Shown one piece after another: positions 2,229-32,475 of a stretch of 32,704 nucleotides of DNA. A model generated the notes under the pieces. The model made no database searches, was not told the DNA's origin, and saw only the letters and a program-made list of their open reading frames with translations. The translations under genes and the position numbers were made by a program. Position 1 is the first letter of the stretch; every line of letters starts with the position of its first letter. Source of the stretch: a virus (Duplodnaviria > Heunggongvirae > Uroviricota > Caudoviricetes); the IMG/VR virus record IMGVR_UViG_2778261231_000009, positions 1 through 32,704 of that record. The stretch is one strand, 5' to 3'.

Positions 2229-3292
2229 AGCAGCTCTACCTCAACGTTTCCTAATTTGAGCCATTCGACTTTCGTGGCATCGATTATCGGTTGAATATTT
2301 GCCGATGGTGTAACGATGTCATAGTCGGTAATACCCGGAATTAGAGAAATCAATGTCCCCGCCTGGCTGCGAATAAAAGCCACTCCAGGCTCTCGGCGCG
2401 AGTCATCGTCCTCCAGCGTTCCGGCGACAGCCTGTTTGGCTGCTGCGAGGGTGATGCCCTCCAGTGATACCTTCACGAGGACGTCAAATGTACGGATGAC
2501 AGGTATGAGCACCAGCGTGTTTTTTGCTGTAACAGGCCGGACATCGTCAATGTGAGCCTGCACCCTGTCGATCACATCCTGAGATGGCAGCCCACCTGCA
2601 GACGTGATCACAACATCAACGGTACCCGGCCCCCGCCGCAAAGGGTAAACATATGCGGCGGATACGCCTGATACCTCAAGCGCCCAGCGTTTGTAATCAT
2701 ATTTATTGCCGCCTGCAGGAGGTCGGCGGATGATTTCAAGCAGACGAGCAAGCAGCTCTGCATCCGTTTCCTCATCTGTTCCGCCAGTCATCAGGCCTAC
2801 TGTCACTGTGCTGTCAAACCCATCAGGTGTTGTGGTCAGTGTGGCCGATGTGACGGAAGTGGTGTTACCAGTGGTTCCGGCCAGAGAAGACACTGCGTTT
2901 ACCGATGATTTTCCATCTGACCCGACAATAATATCTTCGGTTGTTGTCCACGAAACACTGTCGCGTTTGAACACAAGACCGGCAGCGGCCACCGCTCCTG
3001 GTTCGCCGGTAAACGTGGCAGGCCCGGAGGCGCTGTTGGCTGCTTTTTTGCTTAAACCACGTAAACGGGCGTGCAGATAGAGGAATTCCGAATCAGCAGT
3101 ATCCGGAAAGATCTGACGGACTATCCATCCCTGATGCTGATAAAGCCCCTCGGCAACACTGGCTACACTCGATGCCCGGATGTACCAGTCGCTGTCCGGG
3201 CCCAGCGTATCATCTGACAACTGCAGGAGATTTTTGATATCCCGCAGAATGTCAGTGCGTATTTGCGCGGCATTTTTGGTAATGAATGGCAT
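2225..3292 (-). CDS. Baseplate J-like protein (Mu gp47 / W-like)
   Basis: 355 aa; size and synteny between the gp46-like and gp48-like genes; resembles baseplate J family proteins. Confidence 0.8.
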   Translation of the reverse strand: MPFITKNAAQIRTDILRDIKNLLQLSDDTLGPDSDWYIRASSVASVAEGLYQHQGWIVRQIFPDTADSEFLYLHARLRGLSKKAANSASGPATFTGEPGAVAAAGLVFKRDSVSWTTTEDIIVGSDGKSSVNAVSSLAGTTGNTTSVTSATLTTTPDGFDSTVTVGLMTGGTDEETDAELLARLLEIIRRPPAGGNKYDYKRWALEVSGVSAAYVYPLRRGPGTVDVVITSAGGLPSQDVIDRVQAHIDDVRPVTAKNTLVLIPVIRTFDVLVKVSLEGITLAAAKQAVAGTLEDDDSRREPGVAFIRSQAGTLISLIPGITDYDIVTPSANIQPIIDATKVEWLKLGNVEVELL

Positions 3293-23679: not shown

Positions 23680-23701
23680 GGTGAAGAGGTTCAGTGGAAT
23701 T
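23680..23701 (-). promoter_or_regulatory. Conserved late motif, copy 3 (upstream of lysis cassette): AATTCCACTGAACCTCTTCACC on the coding strand
   Basis: Same 17-nt core as copies 1 and 2; about 60 nt upstream of the endolysin ATG. Confidence 0.6.
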
Positions 23702-24200
23702 AGTTGTCAAACTGTACAACAAACTGATCTTTCTCTTCACTGTACCATTTCACTGTATATGAAAACACTCTATCAGAAACAGTCAAGTTACAGTGTCTCA
23801 CTGCATTAACCCGGTCATAACTCATTTGCGCGGGCTCAGAGAATTTTTCTCCATTCAGCAACTCTGTAAGAACAGAATGGACATCGGATGAATCACAGCC
23901 AGGTAAATCACCTTTGTAAAAATTAATCACTGGGGCAATAAATGCTAAAATGAACATCAGGACATAAACTGATAAGGGGCTAACATTTTTTCCGCCCTGG
24001 ACACTACTGGCATCATCCGAGTCTGATAATGCACTTCCGATTAATTTTTTTCTTTTAAATAGATACAATGGAATGACAATGAAGAATATGAATGCTGAAC
24101 CAATCCCCCAACGGGCAGGTCTTGCAATGTTATTGGTGATAGCATCTTTGTAAACAGCAACAGAAGCACCGAATATAATTAAAGCAATTAAAAACTCCAT
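23700..24200 (-). CDS. AT-rich moron: three-helix membrane protein with ~70-aa C-terminal soluble domain, unknown function
   Basis: 166 aa; hydrophobic segments at roughly residues 2-17, 32-48 and 75-95; region visibly AT-rich versus flanks (estimated by eye at high-30s % GC against mid-50s); occupies the slot between the Mor/C-like gene and the lysis cassette. Confidence 0.7.
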   Translation of the reverse strand: MEFLIALIIFGASVAVYKDAITNNIARPARWGIGSAFIFFIVIPLYLFKRKKLIGSALSDSDDASSVQGGKNVSPLSVYVLMFILAFIAPVINFYKGDLPGCDSSDVHSVLTELLNGEKFSEPAQMSYDRVNAVRHCNLTVSDRVFSYTVKWYSEEKDQFVVQFDN

Positions 24201-24213
24201 GTATATTACCTTT

Positions 24214-24648
24214 TTAAAAAAGTTCTTGTTGATTGATTGATGTGTTTTGTCTGTGCTGGCTTAGTAACTGCCATCCAAAACGATCGCTGAATCCATACTT
24301 AGGGCAAAGAAAGGTCATGGCCATAAGAGAGGATGAACCTTGTTCACGCACTTCGGCGAACTCGGCGAGAAAGCGGCGGTTGCGTAATTCACGAAGGGCA
24401 CGATCACAGCGCGGTAAATAGAGAACTTCTCCGCCGAAATTCTTGATGAGTAATTGGGTTTTATCATCGCCGATAGTATTGCGCAGGAGGGCTGCGCGGC
24501 TGGCCCCCATAGCGCGGAGGCCTTTACCTATCGGGAACGTGGTGCCACCAAAAGCAGAAAGAAGCTGCTCGGTCGCCGGGAAGCCTATCAGGTCAGCTAT
24601 TTGAATCACTGCTGATGGCAGCAGCTCCGTTACCTGTTCCAGATTCAT
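24214..24648 (-). CDS. Mor/C-family transcriptional activator
   Basis: Internal start MNLEQVTELLP…; GGEVLYLPRC… and the basic C-terminal half resemble Mu Mor/C; overlaps the 3' end of the GemA-like gene. Confidence 0.7.
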   Translation of the reverse strand: MNLEQVTELLPSAVIQIADLIGFPATEQLLSAFGGTTFPIGKGLRAMGASRAALLRNTIGDDKTQLLIKNFGGEVLYLPRCDRALRELRNRRFLAEFAEVREQGSSSLMAMTFLCPKYGFSDRFGWQLLSQHRQNTSINQQELF

Positions 24649-25069
24649 TATTACGCTCCCGCTTTTTTCGCCGACTCGCATCAATGCTGAGAGCCTGCAT
24701 GAGTTTGGTTAACTGTTCAGTCGTCAACCACTCGATGTATTTGACGTGAAACATATGATCGCACATTTTCTCGGCATAATTCCACGGACGTTTTGCATCT
24801 GCAAGTAATGCGTTAATTTTAGAAAGAATTGACTCGCGCGTATTGGCAACCTTTGGGCGTCGACCGTGTTTTACTGAGTAGCGAGGAAAACCCTTGTCAT
24901 GCATATATTCCATGACAGCCTGCAGCTCGTCGAGGGTGCATTTAGTGGATGATGTTTTACCGTTGCATAAGCGAGACAGAACACTACGGTAGGTTACCTC
25001 ATCCCACCCCAGATATGCCTGACCGGCTTTAATTGCCCCTATAAGGCCTCGTTTTGCTGGCGTGGACAT
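24593..25069 (-). CDS. GemA-like regulatory protein (Mu gp16, DUF1018-type)
   Basis: Internal start MSTPAKRGLIGAIKAGQAYLGWDEVTYRSVL… preceded by a GGAG Shine-Dalgarno; matches the N-terminal pattern of GemA-family proteins. Confidence 0.7.
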   Translation of the reverse strand: MSTPAKRGLIGAIKAGQAYLGWDEVTYRSVLSRLCNGKTSSTKCTLDELQAVMEYMHDKGFPRYSVKHGRRPKVANTRESILSKINALLADAKRPWNYAEKMCDHMFHVKYIEWLTTEQLTKLMQALSIDASRRKKRERNNESGTGNGAAAISSDSNS

Positions 25070-25136
25070 AATATTTCTCCTGTTGGTTGTCATTATCGCA
25101 GGCACTTTATGAAGTGCCTGCTGTAATGACTTACTT

Positions 25137-25346
25137 TCAAGGTTTCATTTTGCTGACTGATATACCACCGATTTTCCCTTCGACCCTGACAACCAGACGA
25201 CCATTGCGCATATGCCAGGCTGCCGGGCGGGTTATTACAGTTTCCCGCTCCGATACACCAGGTGTCAGGTAATAATGGAACTGTGAGTCAACGGGGAAGC
25301 GCTGGTTAAAGGTCTTTGCTGTCAGATTTCTCAGGAGATGTCCCAT
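25137..25346 (-). CDS. Hypothetical small protein (69 aa)
   Basis: Internal start MGHLLRNL… with a strong GGAGG Shine-Dalgarno about 8 nt upstream; no recognisable domain. Confidence 0.45.
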   Translation of the reverse strand: MGHLLRNLTAKTFNQRFPVDSQFHYYLTPGVSERETVITRPAAWHMRNGRLVVRVEGKIGGISVSKMKP

Positions 25347-25524
25347 AGTTTTCCTCCAGATTCGCATCGGTGGCAATAATGCTTAATGGCCATAAGAGAA
25401 AGGCAAACCAGTAATTCTGGCGGGATAAATTAGCTAATCCCACTAATCGGGCCAGAATGCATATCCAGCACCAGCCAAGTGTTAAATACATCGCCAGCAA
25501 TATGATAATGAAAGCTATATCCAT
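25306..25524 (-). CDS. Small two-helix membrane protein (about 72 aa)
   Basis: Hydrophobic IAFIIILLAMYLTLGWCWICILARLVGL and YWFAFLLWPLSII; ATG overlaps the upstream stop; overlaps the next ORF by about 40 nt, so one of the two may be mis-called. Confidence 0.4.
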   Translation of the reverse strand: MDIAFIIILLAMYLTLGWCWICILARLVGLANLSRQNYWFAFLLWPLSIIATDANLEENYGTSPEKSDSKDL

Positions 25525-25739
25525 CACTTTATCCCCCGAAGTTTCTTGAAAGATTCAATCGCCTTCTTCATATCAGCCTGAGTCCCCTTATTGCGTACCT
25601 TACGGTTACTGGCGTCGTAATAGTTGAACCGCAGCTTAAGTGGCACCGCCAGCAACTCGACAACCTGGCTGTTATCGCGGAAGAACCAGATTCGGCGGTT
25701 ACCGTTATCCTGGAACTGGCAGCCCGTTACGCTATGCAT
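25524..25739 (-). CDS. Hypothetical small protein (71 aa), basic C-terminus
   Basis: Start overlaps the end of the DUF4406-like gene; no recognisable domain. Confidence 0.45.
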   Translation of the reverse strand: MHSVTGCQFQDNGNRRIWFFRDNSQVVELLAVPLKLRFNYYDASNRKVRNKGTQADMKKAIESFKKLRGIK

Positions 25740-26106
25740 AACTCACCTCCGTTAATGGGTGACGCTTACGGTGGATCGCAATCGACACGCTTTCCCAGTC
25801 CTGGTAAAGGAACAGCAGCCCTAGCTCACAGGCGCGATCAAACTCCCTGGTAGCGCCGGTGCTCTTTTCCCACCCGTTCAGCAGGAATACCGCATCAGCC
25901 TGCTCAAGCATGGACAATGTAATTTGCAGGTACTGCTCATGCTGCAGGCCGTCTGGAAGAATGGCCGGGTTGAGAACGGTGAAGCCGCGCTCTTCCAGGA
26001 TGCGAGCCTCAGCGTTGAATTCATCGCGGTTAAAGTTGTGATACCCGGTCATTGGACCGGCAATGAAAACCACTGGCTTACGCTCAGAATGTTTATTTAT
26101 ATTCAT
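25732..26106 (-). CDS. DUF4406-type protein (nucleoside 2-deoxyribosyltransferase-like fold)
   Basis: Internal start MNINKHSERKPVVFIAGPMTGY… with a GAGG Shine-Dalgarno; the KPVVFIAGPMTG…FNR…E…VLNP pattern is characteristic of this family. Confidence 0.6.
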   Translation of the reverse strand: MNINKHSERKPVVFIAGPMTGYHNFNRDEFNAEARILEERGFTVLNPAILPDGLQHEQYLQITLSMLEQADAVFLLNGWEKSTGATREFDRACELGLLFLYQDWESVSIAIHRKRHPLTEVSYA

Positions 26107-26272
26107 CAGAGAAACCTCACATGATTTTTCCAGCGGTTCTGTGCAGCGCTGCGTTTCTTCTTGTCGCACCACTCGTTGCCAGGCCGGGGTATCGTTGATG
26201 GCCAGCCTGTCATCGCTTTACGGTTACTGAATTTGAAAGGCATGCGCAGCAGTCTTCTTACTTTGCGGTTTG

Positions 26273-26533
26273 TCATTTGGCATCCGCCTCAGAGCGAAAC
26301 ATCATGATTGTCAGAGCGCCCTTTGTGGCAAGACGAACGGTTGTTCCGGGCTCAATGCTCTGCAGATCGAAAGCGTCGTACAACTCATCAACAGCCTTCT
26401 GGCGACGTGATGCCTTGCGGTGTTTATCCCACGATTTCAGGACAACAGATGTAAACCACTTACCGGCCTGGACCATGATGAATAGCCAACCCATGAAGGC
26501 GAGTCCGGTATTCAAAATTTCGGTGATGGTCAT
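26273..26533 (-). CDS. Small membrane protein (about 86 aa)
   Basis: Internal start MTITEILNTGLAFMGWLFIMVQAG… with GGGAG upstream; one transmembrane helix then a basic tail. Confidence 0.45.
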   Translation of the reverse strand: MTITEILNTGLAFMGWLFIMVQAGKWFTSVVLKSWDKHRKASRRQKAVDELYDAFDLQSIEPGTTVRLATKGALTIMMFRSEADAK

Positions 26534-26537
26534 TTCT

Positions 26538-26783
26538 CTATTCATCTCCCTGGTCGAACAAGATTCGCGAGTAACCCGCATTGGTAGATACTTCCAGCCA
26601 TCCATCACACCGTTCACCGGTTCTGAGATTTATCACCCGAGAATGCTGGTATTGAGAGCCTCGGATGTCTTCCAGTTCATCATCGCTGAAAAACATCGGC
26701 TCTCCGCAGTGAGGGCAGTAGCATCCGTAATCACCATCAGCGCGCCCAATTTTGTTAACTATGAGAATTTCGTTGGTAGCCAT
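26538..26783 (-). CDS. Small Cys-containing protein (C-x-C-x2-C … C), possible zinc-binding
   Basis: Internal start MATNEILIVNK… preceded by a strong AAGGAG Shine-Dalgarno; cysteines at GCYCPHCGEP and ERCDGW. Confidence 0.5.
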   Translation of the reverse strand: MATNEILIVNKIGRADGDYGCYCPHCGEPMFFSDDELEDIRGSQYQHSRVINLRTGERCDGWLEVSTNAGYSRILFDQGDE

Positions 26784-26784
26784 A

Positions 26785-27132
26785 TCACTCTCCTTTACCG
26801 GCAGCGGCAGCGCGTTCTGCGTCATACAGCCATGCATCAATCGGATTCAATGAGTTTTCGATTGGTGCCCCTCCTGATTGATACATCAGCTGCTTTGCAC
26901 GTAAAAACAGCTCGTTCACAGCTTCCAGCTCATCCAGCTGCGCCAGCACATTAGGGTCACTAACATCAACAACCGTTAGCGCGTTGGCACGAGCAAACTG
27001 GACATCAAGCGCTGTTGCCAGATTGCGAACCAGCGCGGCACACTCAGCGCAATGTAGTTCTTTCGCCAGCGCATGCCCGGCTGCTACGAGTTCTTTGACT
27101 GGCGTAGTTTCCAGTTGAGGCGAGATTTTCAT
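26785..27132 (-). CDS. Hypothetical protein (about 115 aa)
   Basis: Internal start MKISPQLETTPVKEL… with GGAG upstream; ATG overlaps the upstream stop. Confidence 0.5.
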   Translation of the reverse strand: MKISPQLETTPVKELVAAGHALAKELHCAECAALVRNLATALDVQFARANALTVVDVSDPNVLAQLDELEAVNELFLRAKQLMYQSGGAPIENSLNPIDAWLYDAERAAAAGKGE

Positions 27133-27848
27133 TTTGTCACTCCAATCTGTTCGCATTTATTAGCTGAACTGCTTACCGCGTGATGCAGCTGCGCATTGCG
27201 GCCAGCCAGATATCCCTCGTTTTCCGCCTTATCCGTTCCCCTGGCTTTGCCGGGTTTGCGCGGTTCCAGCTTTTTCATGCCTTCGCTTAATTTCCTGCTG
27301 CGGTAACACTCCATCAGCGTTGTCTCCGCCTCCGTAACAGCGAAATCACTGACAACGGCATAAGCACCGTTGACCCAGGCGGAACAGAAGGTATCGGCGC
27401 GGGCAACTTTTGTGGCCTGTTTGATGTTCTTGCGTAATGTGGAGAGGTAATCACGGCGGGCTTTCGCCAGTTGCTTACCCAGAACTTCGAATGAATATGC
27501 CGCTATCTGAGGGCGTTCGTCGGGGCCGTAATAGTGTATGGTGCGTTTTGCTGGCTTGCCCCACTGCTCAGCGCCATGGCTGGTGTAAAACTTCACGCCA
27601 AAAACGCGCGCGACCATCTCTGCCAGTATTGCCATATATTCCGGCATCTTCTCAGCATGAGAGGGGGCCTTCTGGGTAGAAGCTTCATTGATATCCATCA
27701 AATCAGCATCAGCCTCAGTCAGTTTGTGGGTTTCCATCAGGCGCTGAGCGCGGCTAAGGGCAAGTGCGGCTTCTTCGGCGCTGGAGTTATTACGCGCCAT
27801 CGCGAGCAGCTTTTTAATTCTCTGGATATATTTCTCTTTATTTTCCAT
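27129..27848 (-). CDS. DUF2786-type protein
   Basis: 239 aa; N-terminal …YIQRIKKLLAMARNNSSAEEAALALSRAQRLM… is the characteristic DUF2786 signature; AAGGAG Shine-Dalgarno. Confidence 0.7.
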   Translation of the reverse strand: MENKEKYIQRIKKLLAMARNNSSAEEAALALSRAQRLMETHKLTEADADLMDINEASTQKAPSHAEKMPEYMAILAEMVARVFGVKFYTSHGAEQWGKPAKRTIHYYGPDERPQIAAYSFEVLGKQLAKARRDYLSTLRKNIKQATKVARADTFCSAWVNGAYAVVSDFAVTEAETTLMECYRSRKLSEGMKKLEPRKPGKARGTDKAENEGYLAGRNAQLHHAVSSSANKCEQIGVTK

Positions 27849-27928: not shown

Positions 27929-28120
27929 TCAGCCAGCAGGTATCAGCGATTTAATATTGGCGAAATAAGGTTCCTGATTTATTTCAACTACCGATACATC
28001 GCGGCAGTCGCGAGCCAGATCAACGGTGCTGACGACCTTACCACCACGTAAAACCGGATTCGGCTGATAAATAAAGACGCTACCAACCGGATATTTTTGG
28101 TTGAACTCTTTAGCTTTCAT
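27929..28120 (-). CDS. Hypothetical small protein (about 63 aa)
   Basis: Internal start MKAKEFNQKYPVGSVFIYQ…; no recognisable domain. Confidence 0.4.
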   Translation of the reverse strand: MKAKEFNQKYPVGSVFIYQPNPVLRGGKVVSTVDLARDCRDVSVVEINQEPYFANIKSLIPAG

Positions 28121-29478: not shown

Positions 29479-30372
29479 TTAATGGATCAGCATTTCAGCT
29501 ATCTGGTTGACGATATGACCGCTGACCGGAACATCATTCATCGCGCTGGTGCGGACCGCACCGCGCAGCAGCTTGAACAATCGGCGGGCGTTACCTTTTG
29601 ACGCATTGAACAGCGCTTTGCTCAGGTCTTCATTCAGGCCATCCGGGAGAACGCTGCTGGCGATGACGTCAATATCAGCACCCGGCAGGCTATGCCCGAG
29701 GTTGAGGGCGAAACCGACACGGCTATAGAGCTGTACGAGCTCACCGCGTTTGCCCTTGAGGTTCAGAATCAGGCGAGGCATACCAACCAGGACGATGCCG
29801 ATCCCCGTTTTGTCATGGATGCGGCGGATAGATTCCAGCGCACGCAGAGGGAGGTTCTCGGCTTCATCAATAATCAGCACGCGTCCGGAGTCGCGCAGCT
29901 TGTTGATGCAGGCCTCGCTGAGTTCGTGCATATTGCCGCGCGTACTGAGCCCCAGCAGGTTACAGAGCTCTTCCAGGACTACCCGTGCGGTGTAGCCAGG
30001 GTCTGCCTCAATCAGCAACGCATCCCGGTATTTGGAGACGTAGGCTTTGCAAATCATCGTCTTGCCCAGACCGGCTTCGCCGTAGAGCACGTTGATATCA
30101 CCTTCGACGTGTGCCATGCGTATAACATCAACGGCTTTGCGCGTTGTTGGGGTATCAACAAATTTGACGCTGATACGTGCCGAACGTTCTTTTTCATGCT
30201 GACGATCGATAAAGCTACGAATATCGTTTTCCAGCGATACAATATCGCCGTCGTATTTATTATTCAGATACTGGCTGATTACGGCCGAGCTCTTACCAAT
30301 GGCGCGGGCGACCTGTGTCTGGTTAAGACCTTTTGCTTTCATCAGTTCGACAAGTTCATTTTTAGCTGACAT
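29479..30372 (-). CDS. B: Transposition ATPase / target DNA activator (Mu B-like, AAA+)
   Basis: 297 aa; N-terminal HTH-like region (LNQTQVARAIGKSSAVISQYLNNKY), Walker A GEAGLGKT, Walker B-like VLIIDEAE; directly downstream of the transposase. Confidence 0.85.
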   Translation of the reverse strand: MSAKNELVELMKAKGLNQTQVARAIGKSSAVISQYLNNKYDGDIVSLENDIRSFIDRQHEKERSARISVKFVDTPTTRKAVDVIRMAHVEGDINVLYGEAGLGKTMICKAYVSKYRDALLIEADPGYTARVVLEELCNLLGLSTRGNMHELSEACINKLRDSGRVLIIDEAENLPLRALESIRRIHDKTGIGIVLVGMPRLILNLKGKRGELVQLYSRVGFALNLGHSLPGADIDVIASSVLPDGLNEDLSKALFNASKGNARRLFKLLRGAVRTSAMNDVPVSGHIVNQIAEMLIH

Positions 30373-30417: not shown

Positions 30418-32475
30418 TCAGAAGGTCGCTTTTTTATTGCCCTGACTTTTCAGCCATTCTTCACGCTCTGATTCGAACAGGAACACATGTTCCCGAGCAT
30501 CATTAATACGCTCTGCGTCCGATGGTATTAATGCGCCGAAATCAGGGTACATATCGCTTTCAGGAAGCAGGCCTCTTGCCTCTGCTTCAATCTCTTCCCG
30601 TTGTTCGTCGATGCGCTTCAGACGACGCTGGCGACGTTTCTCAACGGCGATATCCATCATGCTGGTTGGCAGCGCGGCACGCTTATTGCCGTTCCAGATG
30701 GCGGTGCAGACATAAGTACCGTCCATGCGACGAACGATGACGGCAGCAGGGTCGTGAATGTCATAGGCGACCCGGACTTCCTCACCGTCGACCTGTATCA
30801 GGTCAGCGCTGAAATACTGGTTATTCATCAGGTCAATCCAGCCCCGCTGGGCGGTGCGGCACATTTCCGGCATGAAGGCTTCACGAAGCTCGATATCCGT
30901 CAGATATTCAATATCGTCACCCTCAGTGGCCAGAACCTCGCGGCGGTACTGTGCTGGCGTCATATGCACACCATTACGTTTTGGTAGCTCGCTGTGCTCA
31001 TGCAGGTTGTTGTATTTGTCGACTTCCTCAGCAATGGTATCCAGCAGCATCTGCCACGACGGCAATTTACGCAGCGCGTTACGCTGTACGCTCGTGAGTT
31101 CGCGCCCATTCTCCTGAGCCTTAATCGCTGACTGGATAGCGCGACCGGTCATCCGCACATGCTCACGGTCGGCCCCGAATCCATTGTAAGTATCAAATTT
31201 ATTGGCAATCGCTCTCGGTATTACGGCGTTCAGTCGTTCGATAATCCCGCGTGACTGCGGTCGACCCGGAATACTGGTCGGGTGATCAATACCCATGCGA
31301 GTGAAAATACCGGTGATATCAGCATCCAGCGTTTTATTGGTTTCACCGCCACCGTTATCCGAATAGACAAAAAGAGGTTTTCCGTGGAATTTCATGGCGT
31401 AGCGATAGGCATCCGCTACGGCGATGACGTTCTCTGAGAGCGCCAGGCTCCAGCCCACCAGGTAGCGGGTGCGGCCATCGATAACCAGCGTCAGTTCAGG
31501 TGTGAATGGACGACCATGGACCGGATGAGCAACTTTCATATCCAGCGATTTACCATCCGCAATCCAGCAACCATTTACTGGCATTTGTGACCAGTCACGC
31601 TTCTGATAAACCTCATAAGCCAGAGCCGCTGAACCGCTGATACGGCCGCGAGCGCGTTCACGTTTTGGTAGCTTTTCCATCGCCCGACGCACGGCATCAT
31701 AAGACGGACAGACGGCGAGCATCGCTGGCTGTCCCGCATAAATAGCCTGCCATTCAGTCTTGAATGAGCGCCACGCATCCACCAGAGAAGGGCCTGAGAG
31801 TTTCCGCCAGTGGGCGAGAAAATCAGGGAGCCACTTAATCTGCTCAGGCTTACGCGCTTTAAGATGGCCTGGTGCCAGCAAAGCCAGGCGTTCGATACCT
31901 GGACGTGTAGAAAGGTAAACAGACAGCCATTCCTGAAGTGTTCTTTCGCCCACGCCACGACGGCTGGAACCTTTACGCGCATTGGCAATATCAGCCGCAG
32001 CCTGGATGTTTTCCGGCAACGTGCCCTTGCGTGACTCTTTGGCGATGAACTCAACCGCCGATGCGCGTGACATACCGATATCCCGAAGACGCTCAACCTC
32101 TGCGGCTAATAATGCGCGGGCGTCGGCGATCTGTTTCTGGCGTTCGGTAAGGTCAGAGACCTCACGCTCCAGCAATACCGGGCACTGCCGCAATAACGTC
32201 AGTTCGTCGCGGGTCGTGGTGACTTCCCGCTTTGGTGCAGTCGGCGCTGATGAACAATCAGACTGTTTCAGCACCTCGCGATAATGCCGGGCTTTGACTA
32301 TTTCACGCGCCTGTTCAGGCAGGCAGTCGATGTGGTACTCGAATGCTTTGCTGCCAGCACGTTTGCGAACCAGTTCAGGGGAGTTGCCTGCACTTTTTTT
32401 AAGGCTGTATCGCAGTCCTTGTTGTGTTGTTGGCAGTCCAGGGACGCCAACTAATTCGTTAACAGTCACGAACAT
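30418..32475 (-). CDS. A: DDE transposase (Mu A-like)
   Basis: 685 aa; N-terminal DNA-binding region, central integrase-like catalytic core; resembles MuA; ATG overlaps the ner stop. Confidence 0.9.
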   Translation of the reverse strand: MFVTVNELVGVPGLPTTQQGLRYSLKKSAGNSPELVRKRAGSKAFEYHIDCLPEQAREIVKARHYREVLKQSDCSSAPTAPKREVTTTRDELTLLRQCPVLLEREVSDLTERQKQIADARALLAAEVERLRDIGMSRASAVEFIAKESRKGTLPENIQAAADIANARKGSSRRGVGERTLQEWLSVYLSTRPGIERLALLAPGHLKARKPEQIKWLPDFLAHWRKLSGPSLVDAWRSFKTEWQAIYAGQPAMLAVCPSYDAVRRAMEKLPKRERARGRISGSAALAYEVYQKRDWSQMPVNGCWIADGKSLDMKVAHPVHGRPFTPELTLVIDGRTRYLVGWSLALSENVIAVADAYRYAMKFHGKPLFVYSDNGGGETNKTLDADITGIFTRMGIDHPTSIPGRPQSRGIIERLNAVIPRAIANKFDTYNGFGADREHVRMTGRAIQSAIKAQENGRELTSVQRNALRKLPSWQMLLDTIAEEVDKYNNLHEHSELPKRNGVHMTPAQYRREVLATEGDDIEYLTDIELREAFMPEMCRTAQRGWIDLMNNQYFSADLIQVDGEEVRVAYDIHDPAAVIVRRMDGTYVCTAIWNGNKRAALPTSMMDIAVEKRRQRRLKRIDEQREEIEAEARGLLPESDMYPDFGALIPSDAERINDAREHVFLFESEREEWLKSQGNKKATF

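Follow-up and report, generated by a model that had tools for sequence, protein, structure and literature searches.

A predicted nucleoside-monophosphate N-glycosidase of the DUF4406 family in the mosaic early region of a Mu-like prophage

We analysed a cluster of small genes in the IMG/VR virus record IMGVR_UViG_2778261231_000009 (Caudoviricetes), of which positions 1 to 32,704 form the stretch referred to here as the window. The window is a Mu-like transposable prophage, read on the minus strand, and eight small genes are packed head to tail on that strand between a DUF2786 gene and gemA. With moderate confidence, we regard these genes as the accessory ('semi-essential') distal end of the early operon, with a DUF4406 protein that probably acts as a nucleoside-monophosphate (NMP) N-glycosidase and a role in nucleotide-pool remodelling. 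Under this proposal, the eight genes would be co-transcribed with MuA/MuB upstream and gemA–mor downstream and would be translationally coupled. The DUF4406 protein would cut the N-glycosidic bond of nucleoside 5'-monophosphates to yield a base and (deoxy)ribose 5-phosphate. While the phage replicates lytically by transposition, this section of the operon would remodel or sanitise the nucleotide pool.

The DUF4406 gene (25732–26106, minus strand) encodes a 124-residue protein with the fold of the nucleoside 2-deoxyribosyltransferase (NDT) superfamily. An earlier, sequence-only reading of the region had called this protein DUF4406 and related it to the NDT fold, and profile and structure searches bear out both statements. 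PF14359 was matched with 95.8 bits (cut-off 22, E 2e-27) over model positions 2–89 of 91, and the homologues were all pre-annotated with the same family. The protein also matched phrog_355, labelled nucleoside 2-deoxyribosyltransferase (E 4e-35). Further PHROG matches were to families bearing the labels MazG-like pyrophosphatase and hydrolase, with profiles that extend beyond the region matched. A profile of 43 DUF4406 homologues retrieved Trypanosoma brucei NDT from the PDB (2A0K, E 3e-4); the family profile was needed, as a single-sequence search of the PDB returned only TYK2, a spurious match. The AlphaFold2 model (predicted local distance difference test score (pLDDT) 87.6, predicted template-modelling score (pTM) 0.81) has the flavodoxin-like alpha/beta fold of the NDT/DNPH1/MilB superfamily. 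In a Foldseek search of the PDB, the 38 best hits were NDTs, DNPH1, MilB, BcmB and BlsM, save one TIR-domain chain at rank 9, and the best hits had a probability of 1.0 and template-modelling (TM) scores of 0.55–0.63. Profile and model thus place the protein in the NDT superfamily. DUF4406 occurs on at least 562 viral contigs. In six viral contigs (L155, L157, L164–L166 and L169, positions ~2453–3091), it is fused to a C-terminal domain of about 100 residues, which also ends a 212-residue open reading frame (ORF) in a Klebsiella sp. MISC125 prophage (L006, 5107–5745).

The active site points to a monophosphate substrate. Enzymes of this superfamily use a Tyr–Asp/Asn–Glu triad in which the first-strand Tyr orients the Glu and excludes ribose; nucleoside-using NDTs carry an Asp/Asn in the 5' pocket, and monophosphate hydrolases do not (PMC12884076). 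In the cytidine monophosphate (CMP) hydrolase MilB, Ser97 and Gly99 contact the phosphate and a Phe occupies the position of the triad Tyr; the F17Y exchange turns the preference from CMP to deoxy-CMP (dCMP) (PMC4081090). Aligning the DUF4406 profile with rat Rcl by hhalign, using a query sequence identical to PDB 2KHZ, paired F14 with Tyr13, S82 with Ser87 and E88 with the nucleophile Glu93. E88 also aligned with the Glu of the GTAFEV motif in 2A0K and was at least 90% conserved among the 43 family members, in which G17, P18, G21, S82 and G84 were invariant. It lies within an S-x-G-x-x-x-E motif, with S82 and G84 six and four residues before the Glu, the spacing of MilB Ser97/Gly99/Glu103, so that Ser and Gly stand where nucleoside-using enzymes have Asp/Asn. 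From E88 and this Ser/Gly phosphate pocket, we infer a substrate class: the protein is a predicted nucleoside-5'-monophosphate N-glycosidase and most likely hydrolyses nucleoside 5'-monophosphates. Phe14 in place of Tyr, as in ribonucleotide-specific MilB, suggests that ribonucleotides are possibly accepted. The catalytic apparatus is atypical, and sugar and base specificity are not readable from the sequence.

The immediate neighbour, o71 (25524–25739, minus strand; phrog_9400), encodes a basic 71-residue protein (pI 10.3), its start overlapping the DUF4406 stop by 8 nt. It is a conserved backbone gene of the Mu-like clade. Its predicted fold, a four-stranded sheet with a C-terminal helix, is polo-box-like (pLDDT 93.5); the structure search returned no informative structural relative. 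Homologues with 32–45% identity occur in Mu-like phages of Klebsiella, Serratia and Pseudomonas, where an HD-domain gene follows o71 with overlapping stop and start codons; the HD protein matched phrog_318, 'deoxyribonucleoside 5' monophosphate phosphatase', with E 4e-86. Across 60 o71-bearing loci surveyed with custom hidden Markov models, DUF4406 was found near o71 in 24 and the HD enzyme in 29, the two never together (0/60), and 7 loci had none of DUF4406, HD and MazG-like genes; a MazG-like gene was present in addition in 10 loci (7 with DUF4406, 3 with HD). The DUF4406–o71 pairing was still present at 32% o71 identity (L094), and in L060 the order was reversed, with DUF4406 downstream of o71 in the usual place of the HD gene. 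This distribution suggests that two unrelated nucleoside-monophosphate enzymes are alternatives beside o71. The presence of a deoxynucleoside-monophosphate (dNMP) phosphatase, often with a MazG-like protein, beside o71 in sister phages is the ground on which we infer a nucleotide-pool role for this section of the operon. The fusion of the o69 domain (see below) to a dATP/dGTP pyrophosphohydrolase domain was counted for the same role, and nucleotide hydrolysis is the only functional theme emerging from the array. One locus (L074, 1291–2052) carries o71 and the HD phosphatase as a single 253-residue ORF, either a real fusion or a sequencing error; it was set aside as Rosetta-stone evidence because the joining depends on a single additional A within a run of A residues close to the stop codon of o71.

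Several observations weigh against a nucleotide-hydrolysing role. The hhalign match to Rcl is weak taken alone (E 0.004, probability 8%). The triad Tyr is a Phe here and throughout the Mu-like clade, Tyr being found in Vibrio-type members, and no conserved Asp/Asn is evident at the position of the triad Asp: T63 lies opposite Rcl Asp69 by hhalign, or the nearly invariant Y59 if the alignment is kept ungapped, and the family alignment holds no conserved acidic residue in this segment. With two of the three triad residues apparently out of place, the protein may only bind its ligand, or may be an enzyme with another chemistry. The literature searched contained no published assay or activity for any DUF4406 protein, and the three papers that mention the family do not deal with its function. 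Outside the Mu-like clade, DUF4406 had no consistent enzyme partner in 79 other viral loci and, in lambdoid prophages, no consistent nucleotide-enzyme neighbour; its neighbours in the 79 loci were mostly Ead/Ea22-like, helix-turn-helix and DUF4752 proteins. The mutual exclusion of DUF4406 and HD is partly a lineage effect, each enzyme tracking one o71 subfamily, and few of the occurrences look independent (L060, L091 and L094). The MazG-like call consists of a sub-threshold Pfam hit (E 0.008) and a motif. Finally, DUF4406 is the only one of the eight array genes with an inferable biochemical mechanism, and any function given below for the other seven small proteins is put forward as a proposal.

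The genomic setting is that of a Mu-type accessory early region, as the sequence-only reading had proposed. On the minus strand, the window runs from MuA (30418–32475) and MuB (29479–30372) through a DUF3164 gene and the DUF2786/DUF7168 gene (27129–27848; Pfam E 4.8e-11 and 2.3e-27) to the small-gene array, followed by gemA (24593–25069; Pfam GemA E 8e-20), mor, a GH19 endolysin gene and then head and tail genes. Both flanks, with MuA, MuB, DUF3164 and DUF2786 upstream and GemA, Mor and the endolysin downstream, share the strand of the array, the same order from transposition genes to gemA–mor recurs in L002–L004, and the content of the array varies across 27 loci. Between mor and the endolysin gene lies a 166-residue ORF with hydrophobic segments (23700–24200, minus strand), to which public gene callers give no Pfam family and which has a 159/166-residue variant in the same place in relatives; it may be a lysis-related membrane protein.

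From the DUF2786 side, the array comprises, all on the minus strand, o115 (26785–27132; 115 residues, acidic), whose start overlaps the DUF2786 stop; o81cys (26538–26783; 81 residues, acidic, Cys-containing); the DUF4752 gene (26273–26533; 86 residues, with a hydrophobic segment at the N terminus); o56 (26106–26276; 56 residues, very basic, pI 12); the DUF4406 gene; o71; o72tm (25306–25524), which encodes an acidic membrane peptide of 72 residues and shares 41 nt with o69; and o69 (25137–25346; 69 residues, basic, pI 11), directly upstream of gemA. The six short ORFs listed by the sequence-only reading are all present at these positions; o56 was absent from its list, and o115 lies beyond the end coordinate it gave yet is part of the array, which in fact holds eight genes. 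Its remark on plausible ribosome-binding sites was also sound, as every gene has a Shine–Dalgarno-like motif, recognisable in most, or overlaps its upstream neighbour. Intergenic spacings across the array are -10/-4, +1, +4, -4, -1, -8, -1 and -41 nt. Promoter-like and terminator-like sites were no more frequent in the region than in shuffled sequence, with no internal promoter above chance, and the simplest reading is that the array genes are part of a long early transcript.

Comparison with relatives indicated that the ORFs are genes, a premise of the sequence-only reading. The same ORFs were called by public gene callers on identical contigs. Across one Escherichia coli genome, four other enterobacterial genera plus Serratia, and about 20 viral contigs, seven of the eight genes kept intact frames, starts and stops in up to 23 related loci. 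Pooled ratios of nonsynonymous to synonymous substitution (dN/dS) over these loci were 0.156 for o69 (23 loci), 0.226 for o72tm (16 loci), 0.095 for o71, 0.126 for DUF4406, 0.129 for o56, 0.104 for DUF4752 and 0.136 for o81cys (only 3 distinct sequences), the same range as in the flanking gemA (0.122) and DUF2786 (0.126) genes. Seven of the eight array genes are therefore under purifying selection; o115, with only 3 full-length ungapped copies (proportion of synonymous differences, pS, 0.019; nominal ratio 1.6), offers too few to assess selection. Seven proteins that were looked up are already deposited, on 74–945 contigs each, as hypothetical, DUF4406 domain-containing or DUF4752 family proteins from Escherichia, Salmonella, Citrobacter, Enterobacter and Klebsiella, the genera in which the prophage circulates. 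A search for near-identical DNA in phage genomes returned almost nothing, and one complete E. coli genome carries just the backbone half of the array.

Placing ten proteins on 27 loci revealed that the array is a three-part mosaic of a backbone, a slot between o71 and o69, and a hypervariable slot. The clade-wide backbone consists of DUF4406, o71 and o69, then gemA, and is kept down to 62–74% identity. The o71–o69 slot holds the membrane peptide o72tm in the closest relatives only; elsewhere it is empty (Phytobacter, L009), is taken by a gene bearing a MazG-like motif (in L005, L037 and related viral loci) or is filled by an unrelated gene (L038). The hypervariable slot, 0.5–1.3 kb long, extends from DUF2786 to about codon 8 of DUF4406 and here contains o115, o81cys, DUF4752 and o56. 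Relatives lacking the DUF4752/o56 module align to DUF4406 only from residue 8 or 9 on, which places a recombination junction within the first 8 codons (window ~26083–26106); the match to E. coli FDAARGOS_1303 stops at 26083. In relatives of o115 only the first ~52 residues are conserved (46–66% identity) and the C-terminal part is replaced, indicating a second junction inside this gene.

The variable-module genes o81cys, DUF4752 and o56 have matches in P22-like and lambdoid phages, which marks this part as borrowed from the common temperate-phage 'ea' gene pool. The o81cys protein is 81.5% identical to SEN22_27, a neighbour of EaA within the ea region of phage SEN22 (P22-like), and matched phrog_21581 (E 2.5e-26). 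Its four cysteines (Cys21/23/26/59; CYCPHCG...C) are conserved, in a sequence set too small for a zinc site to be judged, and a zinc-ribbon match was sub-threshold only. The DUF4752 protein scored 125.8 bits against PF15944 (cut-off 27, E 7e-37), a match covering model positions 1–83 of 84; its gene is ~70–74% identical at the nucleotide level to temperate phages (P22-like, Klebsiella and Salmonella), and it adjoins DUF4406 in 6 of the 79 other viral loci, which look lambdoid. The label 'EaF', suggested by a phage record, was rejected for it: in that record the annotated EaF gene is merely adjacent to the matching stretch, and the DUF4752 gene itself carries no annotation. Homologues of o56 with 41–43% identity are annotated as hypothetical in phiV10, TL-2011b/c and Ro157c2YLVW, and o56 is called as a gene in L003. 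A sub-threshold resemblance links the N terminus of o56 to Sra (NF007473), a ribosome-associated protein of stationary phase (E 1.4e-4, 22 bits, cut-off 35); this match, which possibly reflects just a shared basic composition, was not used, and NCBIfam searches of the eight array proteins gave nothing else. For o115, only weak Ead/Ea22-like and PHROG hits were obtained.

At the other end of the array, o69 is a small domain of phrog_19503/phrog_5591 (PHROG E 2e-30) that occurs in 65 clusters of a 1.8-billion-protein library, often N-terminal to variable extensions. Among its fusions are one to the dATP/dGTP pyrophosphohydrolase domain PF04447 (P0141) and others to a Cys-rich CxxCGC...C.W domain (P0147, L091). 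A 63-residue paralogue (27929–28120, minus strand; phrog_5591, E 5e-28) lies upstream of DUF2786 and shares 36% identity with o69 over 45 residues (BLASTP E 7e-7); the two types are joined in tandem in P0139. The 67-nt spacer between o69 and gemA contains a hairpin (25089–25130, minus strand) with 19-nt arms, a 4-nt loop and a free energy of -27 kcal/mol. Its stem is conserved and its loop varies freely across 15 distinct relatives, including ones in which o69 is only 62–72% identical, and the two stem changes observed both keep G–U pairing in the sense RNA. The hairpin had no Rfam match and, having no T-run, is not regarded as a terminator; it may serve in mRNA processing or stability, or act as a palindromic operator preceding gemA–mor.

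Small membrane proteins of phage early regions often serve host-takeover or exclusion roles, and o72tm and the DUF4752 protein might act at the inner membrane in this way, as Kil-like division inhibitors or in superinfection exclusion, independently of the soluble proteins. The sequence-only reading had described o72tm as a two-helix membrane peptide and the DUF4752 product as another small membrane protein. For o72tm, the first hydrophobic helix is strong (2.42 in a 19-residue Kyte–Doolittle window), but the second segment is short (about residues 39–52); for DUF4752, the N-terminal hydrophobic segment is present but only borderline (1.59). These segments, the purifying selection on both genes and the recurrence of DUF4752 across many temperate phages, in their early-left and ea regions, favour a membrane role. 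However, neither protein has homology to a characterised Kil, Sie or holin family, and exclusion by an expressed prophage gene would conflict with repression of the early operon in the lysogen, given that no internal promoter rose above chance. We consider this role a tentative possibility; it is compatible with the proposed function of DUF4406.

A second alternative, which we regard as unlikely, is counter-defence. The DUF4406 protein would destroy an immune-signal or toxic nucleotide, with ADP-ribose-type or cyclic mononucleotide signals and chain-terminator or deaminated nucleotides as candidate substrates, and o69, o71, o56 and o81cys would be stoichiometric inhibitors of host defence proteins. 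The accessory early location and rapid turnover of modules are consistent with this idea, as are the alternative nucleotide hydrolases (HD, MazG-like) in neighbouring slots of sister phages, the small, well-folded, interaction-type domain of o71 and a fold common to TIR domains (4c6t, 7xoz and SPARTA TIR–APAZ were among the lower-ranking fold matches). The unusual active site, with Phe for Tyr and no evident Asp, would suit a non-standard substrate. However, no array gene matched a defence or toxin model in PADLOC, no link was found in the literature, and the backbone genes have low dN/dS (0.10–0.16), without the diversifying pattern often seen in inhibitors. In a bolder version, o71 would anchor an exchangeable NMP-hydrolase cassette (DUF4406 or HD, with an optional MazG-like protein) and act as its partner or regulator, in a counter-defence or pool-sanitising module of a kind not recognised before. 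The atypical active site suggests that DUF4406 could then be an N-glycosidase of new specificity, perhaps towards a ribonucleotide or towards a nucleotide that a host defence system produces. We judge this composite scheme quite improbable as a whole.

The proposal of the sequence-only reading that the membrane peptide and its overlapping or adjacent partners form a toxin/immunity-like pair fared poorly. In such a pair, o72tm would be the toxin, neutralised by o69 or o71. The arrangement invites this idea: o72tm has a 41-nt overlap with o69 and abuts o71 (1 nt), o69 follows it in 16 of the 16 loci that have it, and small hydrophobic peptides are the general kind of type I toxins and Kil-like proteins. 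However, o69 and o71 persist without o72tm in Kosakonia (L005), Phytobacter (L009), L037, L038, L039 and L040, and likewise in Klebsiella phage ST405-OXA48phi1.1 and Pseudomonas phage VW-6B; the slot in these loci is either vacant or taken by a MazG-like, an HD or some other unrelated gene. The peptide, which had only weak PHROG matches, no match in phage genomes and no homologue outside one narrow clade, co-occurs with its supposed partners in that closely related clade alone. Furthermore, a paralogue of o69 exists and the domain fusions of o69 have no connection with membranes, and Pfam, NCBIfam and PADLOC searches with o72tm, o69 and o71 returned no match, to a toxin, antitoxin or defence family or to any other. 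A toxin/immunity pair is thus very unlikely.

That some of the short ORFs arose by chance is scarcely credible: they are short (56–86 residues), the NCBI Prokaryotic Genome Annotation Pipeline (PGAP) gives no annotation for the membrane peptide in E. coli FDAARGOS_1303, o115 is not assessable for selection and a 225-residue antisense ORF (26277–26954, plus strand) shows how easily ORFs form here, but seven of the eight combine intact frames and conserved starts and stops with dN/dS of 0.095–0.226, most belong to PHROG or Pfam families, distant homologues exist in other phages, and the seven looked-up proteins are each widely deposited. The antisense ORF itself was not accepted as a gene, as no family supports it and it runs opposite o56, DUF4752, o81cys and o115, among which are sense genes under purifying selection; it is probably just a by-product of the genes on the sense strand.

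Together, these data describe a region that is ordinary mosaic accessory DNA of a widespread Mu-like prophage, the parts of which belong to known, mostly uncharacterised families. Within it, the DUF4406 protein is a modest lead, a predicted monophosphate N-glycosidase, possibly ribonucleotide-accepting, in a family common in phages. The alternation of DUF4406 and HD enzymes beside o71 suggests that Mu-like phages need a nucleoside-monophosphate-degrading activity in lytic growth. If this were true, a function would be assigned to two DUF-level families, and transposable phages would join the phages known to edit nucleotide pools.

Among characterised enzymes, DNPH1/Rcl (PDB 2KHZ, 4FYH and 8QHR) has the same alpha/beta fold (Foldseek E 5e-4, TM ~0.6), a glycine-rich first loop and an S-x-G-x-x-x-E motif with the nucleophile Glu (S82/E88 in DUF4406, Ser87/Glu93 in Rcl), and both proteins have no Asp at the 5' pocket, a signature of hydrolases acting on monophosphates (PMC12884076). 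The two differ in that identity is ~22–28%, with no sequence-level hit, and DUF4406 is shorter (124 residues), phage-borne and of predicted activity only; Phe14 replaces the triad Tyr13, and Asp69 lacks an evident conserved counterpart. The CMP (hydroxymethyl-CMP) N-glycosidases MilB, BcmB and BlsM (PDB 4JEM, 4OHB and 4JEN) share the fold, a Phe in place of the triad Tyr, set in a similar F-[IL]-[AG]-G-P motif, and the Ser(-6)/Gly(-4) pair before the nucleophile Glu, which binds phosphate in MilB (PMC4081090). However, the Phe22/Arg23 base cage of MilB corresponds to Met19/Thr20 in DUF4406, Asp78 has no evident conserved equivalent, and DUF4406 resides in a prophage operon rather than an antibiotic cluster, with no linked MilA/ThyA-like hydroxymethylase gene. 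The YfdR-like HD dNMP phosphatases (phrog_318) occupy the same o71 neighbourhood in sister phages and would, like DUF4406, act on nucleoside monophosphates, but their fold and chemistry are unrelated (cleavage of a phosphoester instead of an N-glycosidic bond) and they usually lie downstream, not upstream, of o71.

At the level of whole gene sets, the closest theme is found in Z-genome phages. Their DmtZ is a phage NDT-superfamily dAMP hydrolase/deoxyribose-5-phosphate transferase with the full Tyr–Asn–Glu triad (PMC12884076), and in dZ phages NDTs (PF05014) co-occur with the YfbR-like DatZ (bioRxiv 10.1101/2025.10.22.683976). The co-occurrence of NDT-type, HD-type and MazG/DUF550-type enzymes in such phages recalls the DUF4406/HD/MazG-like alternation described here, although no PurZ, DpoZ or other base-replacement gene was seen in the window. 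DUF4406 also probably falls in a different Pfam family from the dZ-associated NDTs, scoring only 14.3 bits against PF05014 (cut-off 28.8), and presumably in a different one from DmtZ. In phage Mu, the region between B and gemA/mor is accessory. The array resembles this semi-essential early region in position, strand and operon logic, with many small, dispensable-looking genes ending in gemA–mor, but none of its eight proteins matched Mu in searches of phage genomes, and its different gene set derives partly from lambdoid and P22-like ea regions.

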